Shown here: piece by piece, positions 2,889 to 26,441 of the stretch
Numbering within the stretch: the first letter of the stretch is position 1
How the letters are laid out: each line of letters opens with the position of its first letter
Source of the DNA: a virus
Lineage: Duplodnaviria > Heunggongvirae > Uroviricota > Caudoviricetes
Virus record (IMG/VR): IMGVR_UViG_2645727810_000007
Length of the DNA stretch: 26,847 nt
Strand: one strand, 5' to 3'
The notes under the pieces: generated by a model
Databases searched by the model: none
What the model saw: the letters and a program-made list of their open reading frames with translations, nothing else
What the model was told of the DNA's origin: nothing
Program-made: the position numbers and the translations under genes

Positions 2889-3577
2889 GTCGGTTTATCC
2901 GTTGCATTGGAATTTATTGTTGCTCCACCACTTTGTACACCTGAAACAGAATGTTTGTGATTGTTATAGTTGTCCCTTAAATTTTTAACAGTAGATGACT
3001 GTGAACTTGCGTTATCCTGAATATCACCGCTAACTTTAAGTAAAGGAGTATTCATGTTGACTCCATCAGGAGCATCAATATTTAACGATGAACATTTAAT
3101 ACTTAGTGGGTTAGGCGTGGTTATGTTTATTGCACCATCAGCAAATTCAATGAATTGAGTAGGTGCAATATTTAATACCCCACCAAGATAAATTGCATCA
3201 GATTTACTGTGTCGCCTTTTGCTTCCAGGTACTGATTCTTTACGATTTTTTCTTACCAGTGATGTGTCTTTGTCGCATATCGCAATCAGACCAATATCAC
3301 CCGCCACAGGGTCCATAATTACAGCGCTGTTTCCTCTCTGCAACCGCCATACGGGAAGATCATATAAAACCGAGTTAGAAATCATTTTTCCTGTACGGTC
3401 TGTTCTGGTTAGTAAAGGAAGAGCGTCAACAACTAAATCCGGTGCTTCCCCCCTGACTTCCTGAACTCTCGCTAACTCAATGAAGAAATATCCAGACATC
3501 AGCATCTCAAAAATATATTCCTGAGATTGTGCCTCACTTACCTGAGCAGGTGTTGGAGTAAATAGTTGCTTATCCAT
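2885..3577 (-). CDS. Baseplate spike/assembly protein (gpV-like by position)
   Basis: ORF track gives 2885..3670, but the first ATG that does not run far into the upstream gene is at 3577..3575 (MDKQLFTP...), overlapping the upstream stop by 8 nt. Function is from gene order. Confidence 0.4.
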   Translation of the reverse strand: MDKQLFTPTPAQVSEAQSQEYIFEMLMSGYFFIELARVQEVRGEAPDLVVDALPLLTRTDRTGKMISNSVLYDLPVWRLQRGNSAVIMDPVAGDIGLIAICDKDTSLVRKNRKESVPGSKRRHSKSDAIYLGGVLNIAPTQFIEFADGAINITTPNPLSIKCSSLNIDAPDGVNMNTPLLKVSGDIQDNASSQSSTVKNLRDNYNNHKHSVSGVQSGGATINSNATDKPT

Positions 3578-4451: not shown

Positions 4452-4746
4452 GCTCGTTTTCCTCGATGTAATACAACAAGTAACGGCTACCCAAGCCTTC
4501 CCATTGCGGGTCCGATTCCCCATCGTTATCAATGAAAATAAGGTCTCCCTTAAATCCAAGGTAGGAATATCTTACCATTTTATTCCCATACAGACATGGA
4601 ACGCCCTGCATAATTGGAACTTCATTAACAGTTAAATCCATGTACATAAAACTCTGTCGCTGAACAAGTTTTATATTACATTGCTGACCAGCCAGACTTA
4701 CCGAAATGGACTGAGATTTGCTGGGAAGAACAGATACTGTAATCAT
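4444..4746 (-). CDS. Hypothetical tail protein
   Basis: 100-aa ORF. ATG at 4746..4744 overlaps the upstream stop as ATGA (translational coupling), inside the tail gene string. Confidence 0.4.
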   Translation of the reverse strand: MITVSVLPSKSQSISVSLAGQQCNIKLVQRQSFMYMDLTVNEVPIMQGVPCLYGNKMVRYSYLGFKGDLIFIDNDGESDPQWEGLGSRYLLYYIEENELV

Positions 4747-5558
4747 GTACTCGCCTTAACTATATTTTTTGCAATATCTGCCGCTTTTTTTGTTGCGCTG
4801 TTTGTAACTTCGAGTATTGGTTTAGACACCGTATCAAGAGCACTCTGAAATTCAGTCGTGATTGTGCCGGAGATTTTTCCAGTGATTCCGCCAACAGATG
4901 ACTTCAGTGATGACCATGATTTACTTAGCTCATCGACAGTAGATTCCCTGGCTCCGCCATTGGTTATTTGCGGATCAACTCCTACATCTCCCTGTGACTT
5001 ATTGTTATCCGTTGGCTTCTGTTCCGACTGAGATCCAGAGAGGATAACCTCCATTTGCTGAATGACCTCCTGAAAATCAAGATAAACCGTCAGAAGAGTC
5101 ACCCCTTTTTGAGAGTTAACTTCGTAATAGTGGTCAACAAGGTCGAAACTCTCCAGAGTTTCCTTTGGCGTTTCAATGTCGTATGTTTTTGCAGAGGACA
5201 GCATCGTTTTGATTGTGTTCAGCGTGCTGTTCTGGCTTGTGAATGTTAGATCGAAAATATTCGGGATATTGCCGGAAAAACCAGTAAGACCATTTACGAT
5301 GATTGCGCATCTTACCCTGGCGGGTTCTTTAACTTTGTTGATGGACTGGTATTTCCCTTTCTCCACCGGAGCGTTTGTTATTTGCGCCCTGCCACTTGGC
5401 TGTACGGATGCCATACCACTGAACTCAAGAGCAACCTCGCCAGTTTCCCTGTCACGAATCACATACTGAGGATGCAGAACGCCGTCGATGATCGAAAGCG
5501 GAGAGCCACCACCGATAGCATTGAATATGTCTGCTGTGTTTAAATCGATTATGCCCAT
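4743..5558 (-). CDS. Tail protein, first gene after the accessory island
   Basis: 271-aa ORF. ATG at 5558..5556 with a GGAG Shine-Dalgarno directly downstream of a minus-strand terminator. No recognisable motif; assigned by position. Confidence 0.4.
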   Translation of the reverse strand: MGIIDLNTADIFNAIGGGSPLSIIDGVLHPQYVIRDRETGEVALEFSGMASVQPSGRAQITNAPVEKGKYQSINKVKEPARVRCAIIVNGLTGFSGNIPNIFDLTFTSQNSTLNTIKTMLSSAKTYDIETPKETLESFDLVDHYYEVNSQKGVTLLTVYLDFQEVIQQMEVILSGSQSEQKPTDNNKSQGDVGVDPQITNGGARESTVDELSKSWSSLKSSVGGITGKISGTITTEFQSALDTVSKPILEVTNSATKKAADIAKNIVKAST

Positions 5559-5570
5559 CTACTCTCCATT

Positions 5571-5595
5571 AAACAAAAACCCAGCCGAAGCTGGG
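5571..5595 (-). terminator. Intrinsic terminator after the KilAC-type gene
   Basis: Hairpin cccagc-cgaa-gctggg (5580-5595). On the minus strand it is followed by TTTTTGTTT (plus a-run 5571-5579). A T-run also follows on the plus side (5596-5605), so it may act in both directions. Confidence 0.55.
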
Positions 5596-5618
5596 TTGGT
5601 TTTTATAAAAAGATTTAA

Positions 5619-6344
5619 TTAGGCTGCGGTAGAAACATTAACTAGATTTCTCAATACTTCAACTCCTTTTGAGTTGTAGCGGAATGCTTCCACCTGTTTG
5701 CTGGAATGCGCAGATTTATCCAGGAAGAACTTCCCGTACTGCTCAGTTTTGAGGTTGTTTGCGTTAGCAATGCGACCACTCTTGTTTGCCGTTACTCCAA
5801 GCTGCTCTGCAACCTCCCCTGCTGAGTAGTAATGCTCTTCTATTGCCGGAAGAGGTATTGCATTAAAACCAACGAGCGGGTTGATTATACTTGCTGCCGC
5901 TGTCTGCTTTGCCTCAGGCGCAAGATTTGGCATCAGATCGAACAGATTGGTAACAGCTTCAACCGTCATTTTCAATGTTCGCGCTTGACGATACTCAACA
6001 AGTCCACTCGACGATTTACCGCTTTTAATGTGCGCTTCTTGCATACTTTCAAGTTTGTCTACAAGTGTTCGGCGAACTGCTTTAGATTCGCGAGCAGCAA
6101 CACGAAGCGCCTGCTTGATAGTCATGGAGATAACATCAATGTCAGCCCCGTTTTTCCGACCTACACTTTTTGTGTAGGTCTCGCCCTCCAATTCATCCTC
6201 AATTTTCTCGATGAATTTGTTGTTACGTACTGATGGCTCTCCACATAACTTGCGAGCTTCATTAACCATCATCAGAAGACTTTGGCTGTCAATGGTTTTA
6301 TCCGTGACAACGGATCCGATGTTTGCTACATTCTTCAAAGTCAT
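5619..6344 (-). CDS. Antirepressor-like protein, KilAC-type C-terminal domain
   Basis: ORF track gives 5619..6395. ATG at 6344..6342 has an AAGGAA Shine-Dalgarno. The C-terminal segment (YSAGEVAEQLGVTANKSGRIANANNLK...NSKGVEVLRNLV) resembles the KilA-C/ANT antirepressor domain; this is recalled from memory, not searched. Confidence 0.5.
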   Translation of the reverse strand: MTLKNVANIGSVVTDKTIDSQSLLMMVNEARKLCGEPSVRNNKFIEKIEDELEGETYTKSVGRKNGADIDVISMTIKQALRVAARESKAVRRTLVDKLESMQEAHIKSGKSSSGLVEYRQARTLKMTVEAVTNLFDLMPNLAPEAKQTAAASIINPLVGFNAIPLPAIEEHYYSAGEVAEQLGVTANKSGRIANANNLKTEQYGKFFLDKSAHSSKQVEAFRYNSKGVEVLRNLVNVSTAA

Positions 6345-6413
6345 TAGGCATTCCTTATGTGGTAGTAAGGGTGTGACATAGGCCGCCAGCAGCACACTGG
6401 CGGTTTTCTTTTT
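6339..6413 (+). ncRNA. Predicted sar-like antisense RNA B, antisense to the start of the KilAC-type gene
   Basis: Plus-strand extended -10 TGcTACATT (6324-6332), followed about 50 nt later by a strong plus-strand intrinsic terminator: stem ccgccag (6383-6389) / ctggcgg (6397-6403), loop cagcaca, then TTTTCTTTTT (6404-6413). The RNA would cover the start codon (6342-6344) and Shine-Dalgarno of the KilAC-type gene. Confidence 0.35.
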
Positions 6414-6432
6414 GCGCCGTCCGGCGCACCAA

Positions 6433-7059
6433 TCAATGAATCCATTCCTCGCCGCGCAGTTTTGCCAGCATTGGCTGAGCGTTCTTTACGACAAAATTGT
6501 TGGTATCAAGATTCTTCATTTCACGAAGAAGTGATTTCTTGGTTTCTTCTGACATATAGCGAGTCTCATATGCGATATCGTAAATCCTTCCTGAAAGCTC
6601 AGAACAAATTTGCTTCATTCCTGGGTAGATGTGTTTGCACATTTGTTGACTCTTCTCCATCCACAATTGTAAGTAGCAGAGATTAACCAGCTCTTCGTCA
6701 GTGAACTGTTTTGCAATCGGTGAGCATTCTGTCTGCCGATCCAAAATATCCAGCACCCAGCGGCGGAACTCTTTGGCTACCGGAGTGCGAGCAAACATCG
6801 CGATTAGGTGGGCACCGCGTAGTGAGAAAACTCGCACTTTTTTGCGATAATTTCCTGAGGTACTCACTTCGAGTACCTGAGTCATTCCGGCGCTAAACTC
6901 ATCGCTATACTTGTTATAAATCATTGTTACTGCACGACTATTTGCGCATTTAAGTGCAGATGCAATATTAGATGATGTAAACCAAACACCATGCATATCA
7001 CGGGTGGGCACCAACTCAACTCCGTGGAAGTTGTAATCTGATTTTGCTACAATATTCAT
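6433..7059 (-). CDS. Antirepressor-like protein with Bro-N domain
   Basis: ORF track gives 6433..7143. ATG at 7059..7057 has an AAGGAAA Shine-Dalgarno. The N-terminus (FNFHGVELVPTRDMHGVWFTSSNIASALKC...VRVFSLRGAHLIAMFARTPVAKEFRRWVLDIL) fits the Bro-N pattern. Lies directly downstream of the Arc-like gene, as ant does in P22 immI. Confidence 0.6.
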   Translation of the reverse strand: MNIVAKSDYNFHGVELVPTRDMHGVWFTSSNIASALKCANSRAVTMIYNKYSDEFSAGMTQVLEVSTSGNYRKKVRVFSLRGAHLIAMFARTPVAKEFRRWVLDILDRQTECSPIAKQFTDEELVNLCYLQLWMEKSQQMCKHIYPGMKQICSELSGRIYDIAYETRYMSEETKKSLLREMKNLDTNNFVVKNAQPMLAKLRGEEWIH

Positions 7060-7136
7060 GTTAGTTTCCTTGCATACGGTTACTGACATAGAGGCCCGGT
7101 TTGTGTTCGCGCACTGCCGGGCTTCACTATTTTTAT
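7060..7136 (+). ncRNA. Predicted sar-like antisense RNA A, antisense to the Bro-N gene ribosome-binding region
   Basis: Plus-strand extended -10 TGcTACAAT (7045-7053) just inside the Bro-N gene start. A plus-strand hairpin gcccgg (7094-7099) / ccgggc (7117-7122) followed by a U-rich tract (cuucacuauuuuuauu, 7123-7136) lies in the arc/Bro-N intergenic region. Geometry matches the P22 sar RNA. Confidence 0.35.
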
Positions 7137-7306
7137 TGGGCATTATCTCTTTCCTCTCTCAGGCTTTTAGCCAGTCGCTGCACAATCGCAGAGTTGATAG
7201 AAATTCCATCCATTTCAGCAACACGTCTAATCTCCTCCTTCATTCGCGCTGGCAAACGAAGCTGGAAACTTTGACTTTTACGACCTGTGTAAAGCACATC
7301 TTTCAT
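7133..7306 (-). CDS. arc: Arc-like ribbon-helix-helix repressor
   Basis: ATG at 7306..7304 with a GGGAGG Shine-Dalgarno (the ORF-track start at 7321 is GTG). SFQLRLPARMKEEIRRVAEMDGISINSAIVQRL aligns with P22 Arc (QFNLRWPREVLDLVRKVAEENGRSVNSEIYQRV). Confidence 0.7.
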   Translation of the reverse strand: MKDVLYTGRKSQSFQLRLPARMKEEIRRVAEMDGISINSAIVQRLAKSLREERDNAQ

Positions 7307-7328
7307 AAGTAATCCTCCCACAATGATA

Positions 7329-7381
7329 CCAACTTGGTTCTAGAACCAATTTAACACCATTTATTTTGATGTCAAGTTGGT
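7329..7381 (-). promoter_or_regulatory. Divergent immI-like control region: Pant-like promoter and palindromic operator
   Basis: Minus strand: -35 TTGACA (7375..7370), 16-nt spacer, -10 TAAATT (7353..7348), about 40 nt upstream of the arc ATG. Perfect 16-bp palindrome TTGGTTCTAGAACCAA at 7335-7350 overlaps the -10/+1. Flanking 9-bp inverted repeat accaacttg (7329-7337) / caagttggt (7373-7381). Confidence 0.55.
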
Positions 7382-7417
7382 GCTATTGTTTAGCGAACAT
7401 CTTTACGTTGAGGTCAT

Positions 7418-7738
7418 ATGAGCAAGTTCCCTAGTCATGAAATGGATAGGTTCAATATCAGGCTTCCTGCAGGAATGCGGGATGCTATAGCTGAACGAGC
7501 AAAACGTAACGGCAGATCAATGAACTCAGAGATTGTTCAGATACTGGAAGATGCCTTGAATGCAGAAAATACACTCGGGGAAATAGCAGACAAAATCAAC
7601 AGCGTCTCAGTTCCGCTAAATGTTGATGCGCTAGTTCAACTTCAAGCCCAGGTTATCGCCATGCAAAAAGAAATACAGGAAAAGTTCAGAGAGCAAAACG
7701 AAAAGTTGAGAGAACTGCTAAACAAAAAACCCACCTGA
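7418..7738 (+). CDS. mnt: Mnt-like ribbon-helix-helix repressor
   Basis: ATG at 7418 with a GAGG Shine-Dalgarno. FNIRLPAGMRDAIAERAKRNGRSMNSEIVQILEDAL aligns with P22 Mnt (FNFRMPMEVREKLKFRAEANGRSMNSELLQIVQDAL). C-terminal heptad-like tail. Divergent from the Arc-like gene. Confidence 0.75.
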   Translation: MSKFPSHEMDRFNIRLPAGMRDAIAERAKRNGRSMNSEIVQILEDALNAENTLGEIADKINSVSVPLNVDALVQLQAQVIAMQKEIQEKFREQNEKLRELLNKKPT

Positions 7739-7745
7739 CGGTGGG
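7721..7745. terminator. Terminator between the convergent mnt-like gene and the 7754..8722 gene
   Basis: Hairpin cccacc-tgac-ggtggg (7730-7745) overlaps the mnt TGA. On the minus strand it is followed by TTTTTTGTT (strong); on the plus strand by a short TTT (weak). Confidence 0.6.
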
Positions 7746-7753
7746 TTTCATAA

Positions 7754-23451: not shown

Positions 23452-23994
23452 TTAATTAGTGAGTCCGGGGATTACGGTTTGCCCGTGCTGTTCAAGGCGT
23501 TCAATTCTCGCCATTAGCTGAGGCTTCTTAATTTTTCCCCAGCGATTAAGCAGGCGACCTGACATGCTGGCAACATCCTTCTCTTTCATGTACTCCAGCA
23601 TTACGGCATTTCTCTCTTCTTCAAATTGACGATGACCAACCTGAAGCATGGCGTACATCCAGTTAAATGCGTTGATGTAAGCAATTTTGATACGCATTGC
23701 TTCTTTTTTGGTGTAGGACATAACCAAAAGCATCAACCCATCCTTGCGGAGACGGTAGAATTTTTGCGGCTTACCATTCTGTAACTCATTGTTTTTATAG
23801 CAAAGCTCAAAGTTGAGCTTTGTATCAAACTCAGGAGGGCAAGCTTCTATGGTTCGCTCAATGTCGCGAACTACGTTCTTCGGCAGCTTTCCAAATGCTT
23901 TTGCCACCATAAAAGAATCTGTAACCGGATCGTTGTTTGCCACAAAAATCAGATCTCGGAAATCGATGCCGTTAACGATAGTTGGATAATTCAT
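23452..23994 (-). CDS. Rha-family phage regulatory protein
   Basis: 180-aa ORF with an AAGGTGA Shine-Dalgarno. N-terminal VTDSFMVAKAFGKLPKNVVRDIERT...GKPQKFYRLRKDGLMLLVMSY resembles the Rha family (from memory). Confidence 0.55.
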   Translation of the reverse strand: MNYPTIVNGIDFRDLIFVANNDPVTDSFMVAKAFGKLPKNVVRDIERTIEACPPEFDTKLNFELCYKNNELQNGKPQKFYRLRKDGLMLLVMSYTKKEAMRIKIAYINAFNWMYAMLQVGHRQFEEERNAVMLEYMKEKDVASMSGRLLNRWGKIKKPQLMARIERLEQHGQTVIPGLTN

Positions 23995-25952: not shown

Positions 25953-26441
25953 CTATGCTACATGTTTAATTTTCTCTACACATTTCCGATTTTTAAACGC
26001 ACTATCCAGAACCGGGTGAATCATAAACAACGAGGCATTAAGGATTTCGTCAACTTCCCGTCGACAGGTTGCGAGCGATGGTTTTTGAATGCGCCCGCCG
26101 CCACGGCATAACATCTTGCGAGGTCTTGCGACGCGATGATAGTAAGATGCAATGGCGTGCTTGGAAGAGCCATGAGCGTAGTAGCTGAGGAGGATTCCAA
26201 AGGCTTTCTTGTCAATGTACATGACGGAATCGACGACCTGAGAAATCAACATTCCATCATCATCATTGCACATTGGCCTTGTCATAACTCTTCCCGGCTC
26301 TACGCTCTCCATGAACTTAGCTATTACGCTGCTCATGCGCTTTTCCAGACGACCTGAATAAACCCATGCTCCCCACAGTTCAAGCCATCCATTCAGCCAA
26401 TCGTGCTGCTCTTTGGTGAGGTTTAGTTCTCTTATGCTCAT
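25953..26441 (-). CDS. Q: Late-gene antiterminator Q (non-lambda Q type, 162 aa)
   Basis: Position between ninH/rusA and the lysis cassette. 162 aa with four Cys, followed directly by a promoter-plus-terminator unit. ATGA-coupled to ninH. Family assignment is from memory and synteny. Confidence 0.65.
   Translation of the reverse strand: MSIRELNLTKEQHDWLNGWLELWGAWVYSGRLEKRMSSVIAKFMESVEPGRVMTRPMCNDDDGMLISQVVDSVMYIDKKAFGILLSYYAHGSSKHAIASYYHRVARPRKMLCRGGGRIQKPSLATCRREVDEILNASLFMIHPVLDSAFKNRKCVEKIKHVA

Follow-up and report, generated by a model that had tools for sequence, protein, structure and literature searches.

Two consecutive antirepressor-type genes with separate predicted antisense units in a P22 immI-like module of a lambdoid prophage

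The IMG/VR virus record IMGVR_UViG_2645727810_000007 (26,847 nucleotides (nt), the whole of which we call the window) carries an island at positions 5559-9407 of its minus-strand late operon, and this island contains a module resembling the immI region of phage P22. On the minus strand the module runs from a P_ant-like promoter through a palindrome, arc, gene 1 and gene 2 to a terminator (Table 1). An earlier note on this DNA had proposed that the function of the single antirepressor gene of P22, ant, is here split over the two genes, with gene 1 read as a Bro-N protein and gene 2 as a protein with a KilAC-type C-terminus. The gene pair is as described there. The open reading frames (ORFs) agree with the RefSeq starts at loci of 98% identity (coding sequences of 627 nt for gene 1 and 726 nt for gene 2), each ATG has its own AAGGAA Shine-Dalgarno motif 6-7 nt upstream, and the P22 annotation places one ant gene after arc. 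The proposed split did not survive comparison: by their domains both genes encode complete two-domain proteins, each occurs without the other, and they are very probably not a split gene.

Table 1 Features of the module, its island and the surrounding late operon, with positions in the window
Feature	Position	Strand	Description
Gene 1, 208 amino acids (aa)	6433..7059	-	Bro-N, residues 23-105; P22_AR_C (PF10548), residues 117-184
Gene 2, 241 aa	5619..6344	-	Rha-like N-domain, residues ~14-105; unclassified C-half, ~105-238 (helices and winged helix-turn-helix, HTH)
Sar-homologous antisense unit, gene 1 (predicted)	7045..7135	+	Extended -10 TGC-TACAAT, 7045-7053; predicted start ~7060; hairpins 7058-7089 and 7091-7125; U-rich tail
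Sar-like antisense unit over gene 2 start (predicted)	6304..6415	+	-35 GTGACA, 6304-6309; 17 nt; TGC-TACATT, 6324-6332; start ~6339; hairpin 6380-6406 and T-run
Mnt-like ribbon-helix-helix (RHH) repressor gene, 106 aa	7418..7738	+	Divergent from arc; Pfam Arc, E 1.6e-20, residues 7-54
P_ant-like sigma-70 promoter	7348..7375	-	TTGACA, 16 nt, TG-TAAATT; 10/12 matches plus TG
Candidate Arc/Mnt operator, perfect 16-bp palindrome TTGGTTCTAGAACCAA	7332-7347	.	Inverted-repeat search
Candidate Arc/Mnt operator, 17-nt inverted arms	7320-7336 / 7373-7389	.	Overlap the -35 and start region
arc, Arc-type RHH repressor gene, 57 aa	7133..7306	-	First gene of the operon; Pfam Arc, E 1.2e-11; ribosome-binding site (RBS) GGGAGGA
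Intrinsic terminator closing the arc-gene 1-gene 2 operon	5578..5597	-	8-bp stem, 5 GC pairs, then TTTGTTT
Dit-like gene	4743-5558	-	Flanks the island; baseplate J next
P63C-domain gene	7754-8785	-	In the island; PHROG 2384, function unknown
157-aa ORF	8932-9405	+	In the island; hydrophobic N-terminus, no family match
605-aa tape-measure-like protein with SLT (lytic transglycosylase) domain	9408-11225	-	Flanks the island
Canonical Rha protein (Phage_pRha and ORF11CD3)	23452-23994	-	Between lysis genes and small terminase
Q antiterminator	25953-26441	-	Island surroundings
Rz, small terminase, DUF3383 sheath-like protein		-	Island surroundings

Gene 1 has the composition of a whole, short P22-type antirepressor (Ant), and repressor binding is the activity predicted for its product. 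Both of its domains score above the Pfam gathering cut-offs: Bro-N, which the earlier note had recognised, at 36.8 bits against 25.6, and P22_AR_C, which it had overlooked, at 50.1 bits against 22.4. The protein matches PHROG 245, 'anti-repressor Ant' (E 1.5e-50), its start codon aligns with the start of P22 ant, and a gene of Salmonella phage SPN3UB annotated 'anti-repressor Ant' shares 93.5% nucleotide identity with it. The Ants that occupy the same slot in sibling prophages carry the C-domain of gene 1 behind either Bro-N or P22_AR_N and have a longer middle (304-309 aa), and a 206-aa short form made of AntA and P22_AR_C is present in Stx2a phages. Position agrees as well: gene 1 follows arc in a P_ant operon that is opposed by the Mnt-like repressor, and it has a predicted sar-type antisense unit over its RBS. 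A PDB sequence search with gene 1 gave nothing meaningful, and NCBIfam has no model for it.

Gene 2 matches PHROG 1726, 'anti-repressor', from end to end (E 2.5e-96). Over residues 14-105 it shares 72% identity with Ant1/Ant2 (residues 112-203) from the P1-like phage RCS47 (92 residues, E 4e-44). When an alignment of 161 sequences of this N-domain was compared with 85 Rha N-domains, hhalign returned a probability of 98.8% (E 5.5e-17 over 85 columns); the controls gave 5.3% for Bro-N against Rha and 1.6% for the gene 2 N-domain against Bro-N, and the latter value rules out a Bro-N identity. Pfam searches with the whole of gene 2 or with either half found nothing at E<=10, ANT/KilAC and Phage_pRha (PF09669) included. 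The N-domain is too divergent for the Phage_pRha model and is recognised as Rha-like only when profile is set against profile. There is likewise no NCBIfam model for gene 2, and PDB sequence searches with gene 2 or with a profile of its C-half gave nothing meaningful.

KilAC (PF03374), the identity that the earlier note had given to the C-half, was tried and rejected. Besides the empty Pfam search, hhalign gives 0.3-0.4% against KilAC alignments of 6 and of 111 sequences, while the Pfam ANT model scores RCS47 Ant1 and KilA at E ~1e-30. An AlphaFold model of gene 2 (predicted local distance difference test, pLDDT, 71; predicted template modelling score, pTM, 0.36) has an N-domain of the order beta-alpha-alpha-beta-beta-alpha, then long linker helices, and at its C-terminus an HTH followed by a beta-hairpin and a helix. 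Against the viral models of BFVD, Foldseek retrieves antirepressor, KilA and Rha proteins with E-values down to 2e-8. Against the PDB, the whole model retrieves nothing at E<=0.001, and the C-terminus shows a local resemblance to winged HTH domains of the MerR/RacA/Xis type at E>0.1.

The relatives of gene 2 show how its two halves are used elsewhere. A search among 1.84 billion representatives found 1168, and architectures were read for some of the 150 listed. The 53 scanned relatives that share only the C-half join it to Bro-N (16), KilA-N (12), ORF6N (8), Rha (7), P22_AR_N (3) or AntA (3), and 4 of the 17 that share only the N-domain end in KilAC. The halves of gene 2 shuffle independently. 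The C-half defines a domain family of about 1100 representatives at E<=0.001 that has no Pfam model. Its topology of HTH, beta-hairpin and helix recalls KilAC, and its N-module partners are those of KilAC; with PDB matches at E>0.1, this likeness appears to be an analogy of position and topology rather than a shown homology. The C-half stands at the position of KilAC, which is why some pipelines and the earlier note called it so; on the sequence comparisons it is best described as an unclassified domain that belongs to the same set of shuffled modules and occupies KilAC's place.

If gene 2 completed gene 1, it would be expected only beside truncated Ants and never alone. We examined 80 viral contigs with gene 2 relatives of 68-100% identity. 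The upstream ORF ends within ~135 nt of gene 2 (88 nt in most) and is 71-338 aa long; it contains P22_AR_C in 65/80, Bro-N in 67/80 and P22_AR_N in 5/80. Besides the short Ant, full-length Ants of 288-338 aa precede gene 2. Two sibling prophages, alike in their flanking tail genes, illustrate this, one with a 304-aa Bro-N/P22_AR_C Ant (L003) and the other with a 309-aa P22_AR_N/P22_AR_C Ant (L004), and a further sibling (L005) has a lone 304-aa Ant and no gene 2. Klebsiella phage phiKp_30 (L094) has the gene 2 cassette in its early-left region, adjoining anti-RecBCD-like and exonuclease genes. No Ant precedes it there; at ~3190-3290 only a ~25-nt stub of the 3' end of gene 1 remains, which marks a recombination event in which gene 1 was lost. 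The reverse case is SPN3UB (L093), in which a 262-aa ORF6N-domain protein (1684-2472), unrelated to gene 2, comes after the gene 1 homologue, and thus the immI-like second slot is filled by different members of the regulator network. Since gene 2 occurs without an Ant and gene 1 without gene 2, the second slot is modular and both genes can stand alone. Gene fission was rejected on these grounds, that is, on the completeness of both two-domain products, the 288-338 aa Ants ahead of gene 2 and its occurrence without any Ant.

Each gene has a predicted antisense unit of its own, as the earlier note had surmised. For gene 1, the spacer that separates it from arc aligns with sar, P_sar and t_sar as annotated in P22. 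The terminator stem GAAGCCC..GGGCTTC, a GTCAGTAA block and a TTGCTA-containing extended -10 element are in register with P22 sar, and in both phages the -10 element lies inside the first codons (TGCTATACT in P22, TGCTACAAT in the window). The predicted RNA of ~74 nt folds at -35.1 kcal/mol (z -5.65) into the same two hairpins as P22 sar (z -5.26). The prediction of this RNA is supported by its homology to P22 sar.

For gene 2, a promoter scan taken by itself does not exceed chance expectation (4 sites against 3.7 expected), and the case for an antisense RNA therefore rests on conservation. The -35 element, the TGn -10 element and the hairpin with its T-run are kept in 34 of 36 unique intergenic alleles, and the hairpin is intact in all 15 diverse loci compared, with compensatory changes at 4 pairs. 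Between loci with different upstream ant genes, homology ends just past the T-run of this unit. Synonymous codon entropy of gene 2 (38 distinct alleles) is 0.17 bits in codons 2-16, which lie over the promoter, versus 0.90 bits in codons 17-56. The promoter and terminator also travel with gene 2 into phiKp_30. The predicted separate antisense control of each gene is well supported by these comparisons. The two plus-strand units, taken as 7040-7136 and 6320-6418, are also alike in sequence: TTGCTACAaTaTTCA corresponds to TTGCTACAtTcTTCA, and a TGACATAGGCC block common to both precedes the terminator. Their global alignment has 65 of 82 aligned bases identical, with many gaps (z 3.7 against mononucleotide shuffles), and is only suggestive of a common origin by duplication.

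Comparison with P22 immI places the module within a known type. In both, divergent Mnt-like and Arc RHH genes surround P_ant, the arc-ant spacer is sar-homologous and shares both the terminator stem and the place of the -10 element, and the module is co-directional in the late operon; the ant-type gene of the window carries P22_AR_C, as in the P22 type. The window differs from P22 in its 208-aa Ant, with Bro-N instead of P22_AR_N (the P22 architecture being judged from the 309-aa Ant of L004), in a second regulator gene that is added, together with its own antisense unit, before the terminator, and in the context of a contractile tail, where the module lies between tape-measure and baseplate genes and not before the tailspike. 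Ant2 of the P1 family, as found in RCS47, resembles gene 2 in having a Rha-like core followed by a C-terminal HTH-containing domain. Small-RNA control of translation is exerted by c4 in P1 (PMC8546580), whereas the candidate for gene 2 is a cis-antisense RNA. RCS47 Ant1 ends in a bona fide KilAC (E 2.6e-30), unlike the C-half of gene 2. Gene 2 also lacks the N-terminal extension of the P1-type Ant, there is no icd gene, and what lies upstream is arc and a P22-type ant rather than the c4/icd of P1.

Both genes conform to a broader pattern of domain combination. Iyer, Koonin and Aravind reportedly described, in 2002, a network of regulators in which Bro-N, Rha, AntA and KilA-N are shuffled with KilAC and P22AR-C. 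This network is summarised in PMC9043618. Its rule of one N-module joined to one C-module holds for gene 1 and for gene 2, and the C-half of gene 2 pairs with the same N-modules as the network does. In AriS, an AntA plus KilAC protein of a Listeria phage, the two domains have separate activities, one of them on the host SOS response (PMC9043618), which shows by analogy that the annotation 'antirepressor' need not mean repressor binding. AriS differs from gene 2 in its N-domain, its true KilAC, its Gram-positive host and its location outside an Arc/Mnt operon.

We consider it probable that genes 1 and 2 encode two regulators that act independently of each other within a single operon, controlled by Arc/Mnt and doubly gated by antisense RNA, and that the whole is a secondary immunity module of the P22 immI type. 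In the lysogen, the Mnt-like RHH protein would hold P_ant shut; upon infection or loss of Mnt, P_ant would fire briefly until Arc closes it again. Late transcripts antiterminated by Q would cross the module regardless of Mnt and Arc. Because the module is co-directional in the late operon, such transcripts would carry both genes, and we infer that each gene therefore needs a translational block of its own. The cis-antisense RNAs, the sar homologue at gene 1 and the second sar-like RNA at gene 2, would cover the RBS and the start codon. The product of gene 1 would bind and inactivate a CI/C2-type repressor, as P22 Ant does; the repressor of this prophage is encoded outside the window. A precedent besides P22 Ant is the Stx phage phi24B, where deletion of a P22_AR_C-type Ant affected induction of the late promoter (PMC3064807). 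The product of gene 2 would work on its own: it would be a second antirepressor that has a different target, or it would regulate some function of the host. Gene 2 is a portable cassette in which a core of the P1 Ant1/Ant2 type is joined to a helical and winged-HTH half; in P1 itself, the Ant1/Ant2 complex acts as an antirepressor (PMC8546580).

Several points weigh against two independent regulators of this kind. The protein activities and the existence of both RNAs are all inferred from sequence, and the AlphaFold model of gene 2 is of only moderate quality. The conserved 5' codons of gene 2 could partly reflect constraints on translation initiation, not a promoter. An N-domain identity of 72% between P1-like and lambdoid phages would be odd for the recognition of a phage-specific repressor. 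Linkage is a further point: P22_AR_C neighbours gene 2 in 65/80 viral loci, and among 5426 complete E. coli genomes the pair is present in 68 and gene 2 in 76 (~68/76), which could mean functional coupling. The loci behind this linkage are closely related and phylogenetically redundant, so it is not independent evidence. Coupling could also be read from another context, the Stx2a-converting phages, in which gene 2 and P22_AR_C-type genes co-occur: in Stx2a_F451 (L008, 3030-5243) a gene 2 relative of 62% identity lies ~1 kb from an AntA/P22_AR_C protein in the early-left operon, close to int/xis, and an Ant pseudogene separates the two.

One rival reading is a split or heteromeric antirepressor whose two products work only together. 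The linkage in viral and E. coli genomes, with its conserved ~88-nt spacer, and the Stx2a co-occurrence speak in its favour, as do the fusion of the gene 2 C-half to Bro-N elsewhere (16/53, for instance in Bacillus phage SDFMU_Pfc) and the action of P1 Ant1/Ant2 as a heterodimer (PMC8546580). We nevertheless judge it improbable. An N-terminal and a C-terminal module are already present in both proteins, gene 2 follows full-length Ants of ~300 aa, a partner that is missing nothing, and P22 and L005 function with one Ant. Gene 2 is alone in phiKp_30, and gene 1 stands with the unrelated ORF6N protein in SPN3UB. No fusion of gene 1 with gene 2 was seen among the representatives tested, and 49 of the 53 C-half proteins scanned (of the 150 listed) have a single N-module. 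The predicted translational control is also separate for each gene.

Another reading leaves gene 1 as the sole true antirepressor and makes gene 2 a regulator directed at the host or at phage DNA, for example a modulator of SOS/RecA like the C-domain of AriS, an inhibitor of growth or division like P1 KilA or phi11 Gp07, or a DNA-binding transcription factor of the Rha type. We regard this as rather unlikely. In its favour, proteins built in this way, with AntA, Bro-N or pRha ahead of a C-domain, have activities that are dual or host-directed, the examples being AriS (PMC9043618) and phi11 Gp07 (PMC5944126). The N-domain of gene 2 is Rha-like, and a winged-HTH C-terminus of the MerR/RacA/Xis type is typical of DNA binders, but those PDB matches have E>0.1. 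An N-domain 72% identical across unrelated phage types would fit a conserved host or generic target better, gene 2 is also found in early-left operons by anti-RecBCD and exonuclease genes, and tight antisense gating would suit a toxic product. On the other side, among characterised proteins the N-domain is most closely related to the P1-family antirepressor (PMC8546580), gene 2 is located in an Arc/Mnt-controlled ant operon, and its C-half is not KilAC, so the activities of AriS and KilA are not transferable. The earlier note had held, as a fallback, that the lysogen carries two independent antirepressors or that one of the genes serves anti-defence. The former lies within the reading we favour. 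The latter, in which one gene would be counter-immunity cargo in a variable slot, found no support and is very improbable: the slot between tape-measure and baseplate genes is indeed a cargo hot spot, with Panacea-domain, LexA-family and P63C proteins in siblings, but every homology that can be detected for the two genes leads to the Ant/Rha/Bro network of regulators, and their expression is wired to the Arc/Mnt immunity circuit. PADLOC gave no match, a weak test, as its library models defence systems and not anti-defence proteins.

A more specific proposal, which we put forward only tentatively and think rather unlikely to hold in full, is that gene 2 and its cis-antisense RNA together make up a portable and self-contained 'gated regulator' cassette, which recombines into early operons as well as behind many ant alleles. 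The Rha-like core of gene 2, near-invariant and 72% identical to that of P1 Ant, would recognise a conserved host component or a common phage component and not a phage-specific repressor, and the swappable C-half would set the target. If this were true, tandem sar-type antisense RNAs would be a general means of silencing several toxic regulators in a late operon subject to read-through.

The gene pair is an ordinary variant of immI whose DNA can already be found in public genomes; among enterobacterial prophages the module is both common and mobile. In Escherichia phage JEP4 (Lederbergvirus, L001), JEP4_15 to JEP4_17 form an arc-gene 1-gene 2 block, which in this phage (97%) and at RefSeq E. 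coli prophage loci has 97-98% nucleotide identity; in JEP4 a C2-like repressor gene diverges from arc. The JEP4 labels, 'Rha protein' for the Bro-N/P22_AR_C gene 1 and 'KilA protein' for the Rha-like, non-KilAC gene 2, misfit the domains found. RefSeq calls gene 2 a 'hypothetical protein' and gene 1 a 'P22AR C-terminal domain-containing protein'. Another virus record (L011, IMGVR_UViG_3300015184_000023) encodes a gene 2 product 100% identical to that of the window between the same neighbours; this contig of 26,652 bp probably represents an identical or almost identical prophage. A 73-aa ORF that has no Pfam match overlaps the gene 2 stop in JEP4 (5725-5946), L004 (2610-2831), L034, L045 and L058; the window lacks it and has the terminator directly after gene 2. 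Tandem genes of the Ant/Rha/KilA type are common in temperate phages, RCS47 with ant1/ant2 then kilA being an example. Limited literature searches on antirepressors, none of which targeted sar-like RNAs or the family of gene 2 specifically, found no paper on the gene 2 family, its C-domain or the second antisense RNA.

Antirepressor modules decide when a prophage awakens and are able to affect other prophages in trans (PMC3121763); such modules therefore influence the induction of toxin phages and gene transfer in E. coli and Salmonella. The analysis puts right how the domains of a recurrent module are read, delimits a C-terminal domain family that is unclassified and ties the core of P1 Ant to the Rha fold. 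A second sar-like antisense RNA is predicted as well and is experimentally testable. No new kind of system is revealed; the locus is a P22 immI variant with a second, cassette-like regulator and a sar-like unit.

The control region upstream of gene 1 is that of a P22-like E. coli prophage (L002), to which the mnt/arc region is identical, the P_ant-like promoter included, and which carries the same four-gene block in the immI position, ahead of the tailspike. In the window this promoter is the best site of the region in a promoter scan and lies 42 nt upstream of the arc ATG. The palindrome and the inverted arms at 7320..7389 are candidate Arc/Mnt operators, a role assigned from their position only. 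The Mnt-like protein matches PHROG 1287 (E 2e-47), and its 98%-identical RefSeq copy is named 'Arc family DNA-binding protein'; arc corresponds to a 174-nt coding sequence in a RefSeq locus of 98% identity. At the other end of the operon, the terminator is a symmetrical hairpin with T-runs on both sides, 21 nt past the gene 2 stop.

The module host is a lambdoid prophage with a contractile tail. Around the island, the Q, lysis, terminase, tail and baseplate genes are on the minus strand throughout. The canonical Rha protein sits where rha likewise does in P22, between the lysis genes and the small terminase, and with it the window has three members of the Bro/Rha/Ant network. Within the island, the P63C protein is 343 aa long as a TTG-start ORF versus 322 aa by the RefSeq call, and its gene shares 97.7% identity with part of phage vB_EcoP-611R6. 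A long imperfect hairpin at 8715-8822, in the upstream/intergenic region of P63C, may be a regulatory palindrome or a terminator. An Rfam scan of 5000-9500 (E<=1) returned no curated family and only sub-threshold matches at chance level, namely a spurious miRNA-like match at the hairpin (8715-8820; best E 0.0039), rsmX at the operon terminator and symR (E 0.81) in the sar-like region. The slot that separates the tape-measure/SLT gene from the Dit-like baseplate gene is a hot spot for cargo in sibling E. coli prophages (L003-L006). What it contains there instead includes a solitary P22-type Ant, a LexA-family repressor accompanied by a P22_AR_N Ant, a protein with a Panacea domain, P63C proteins and several small ORFs.

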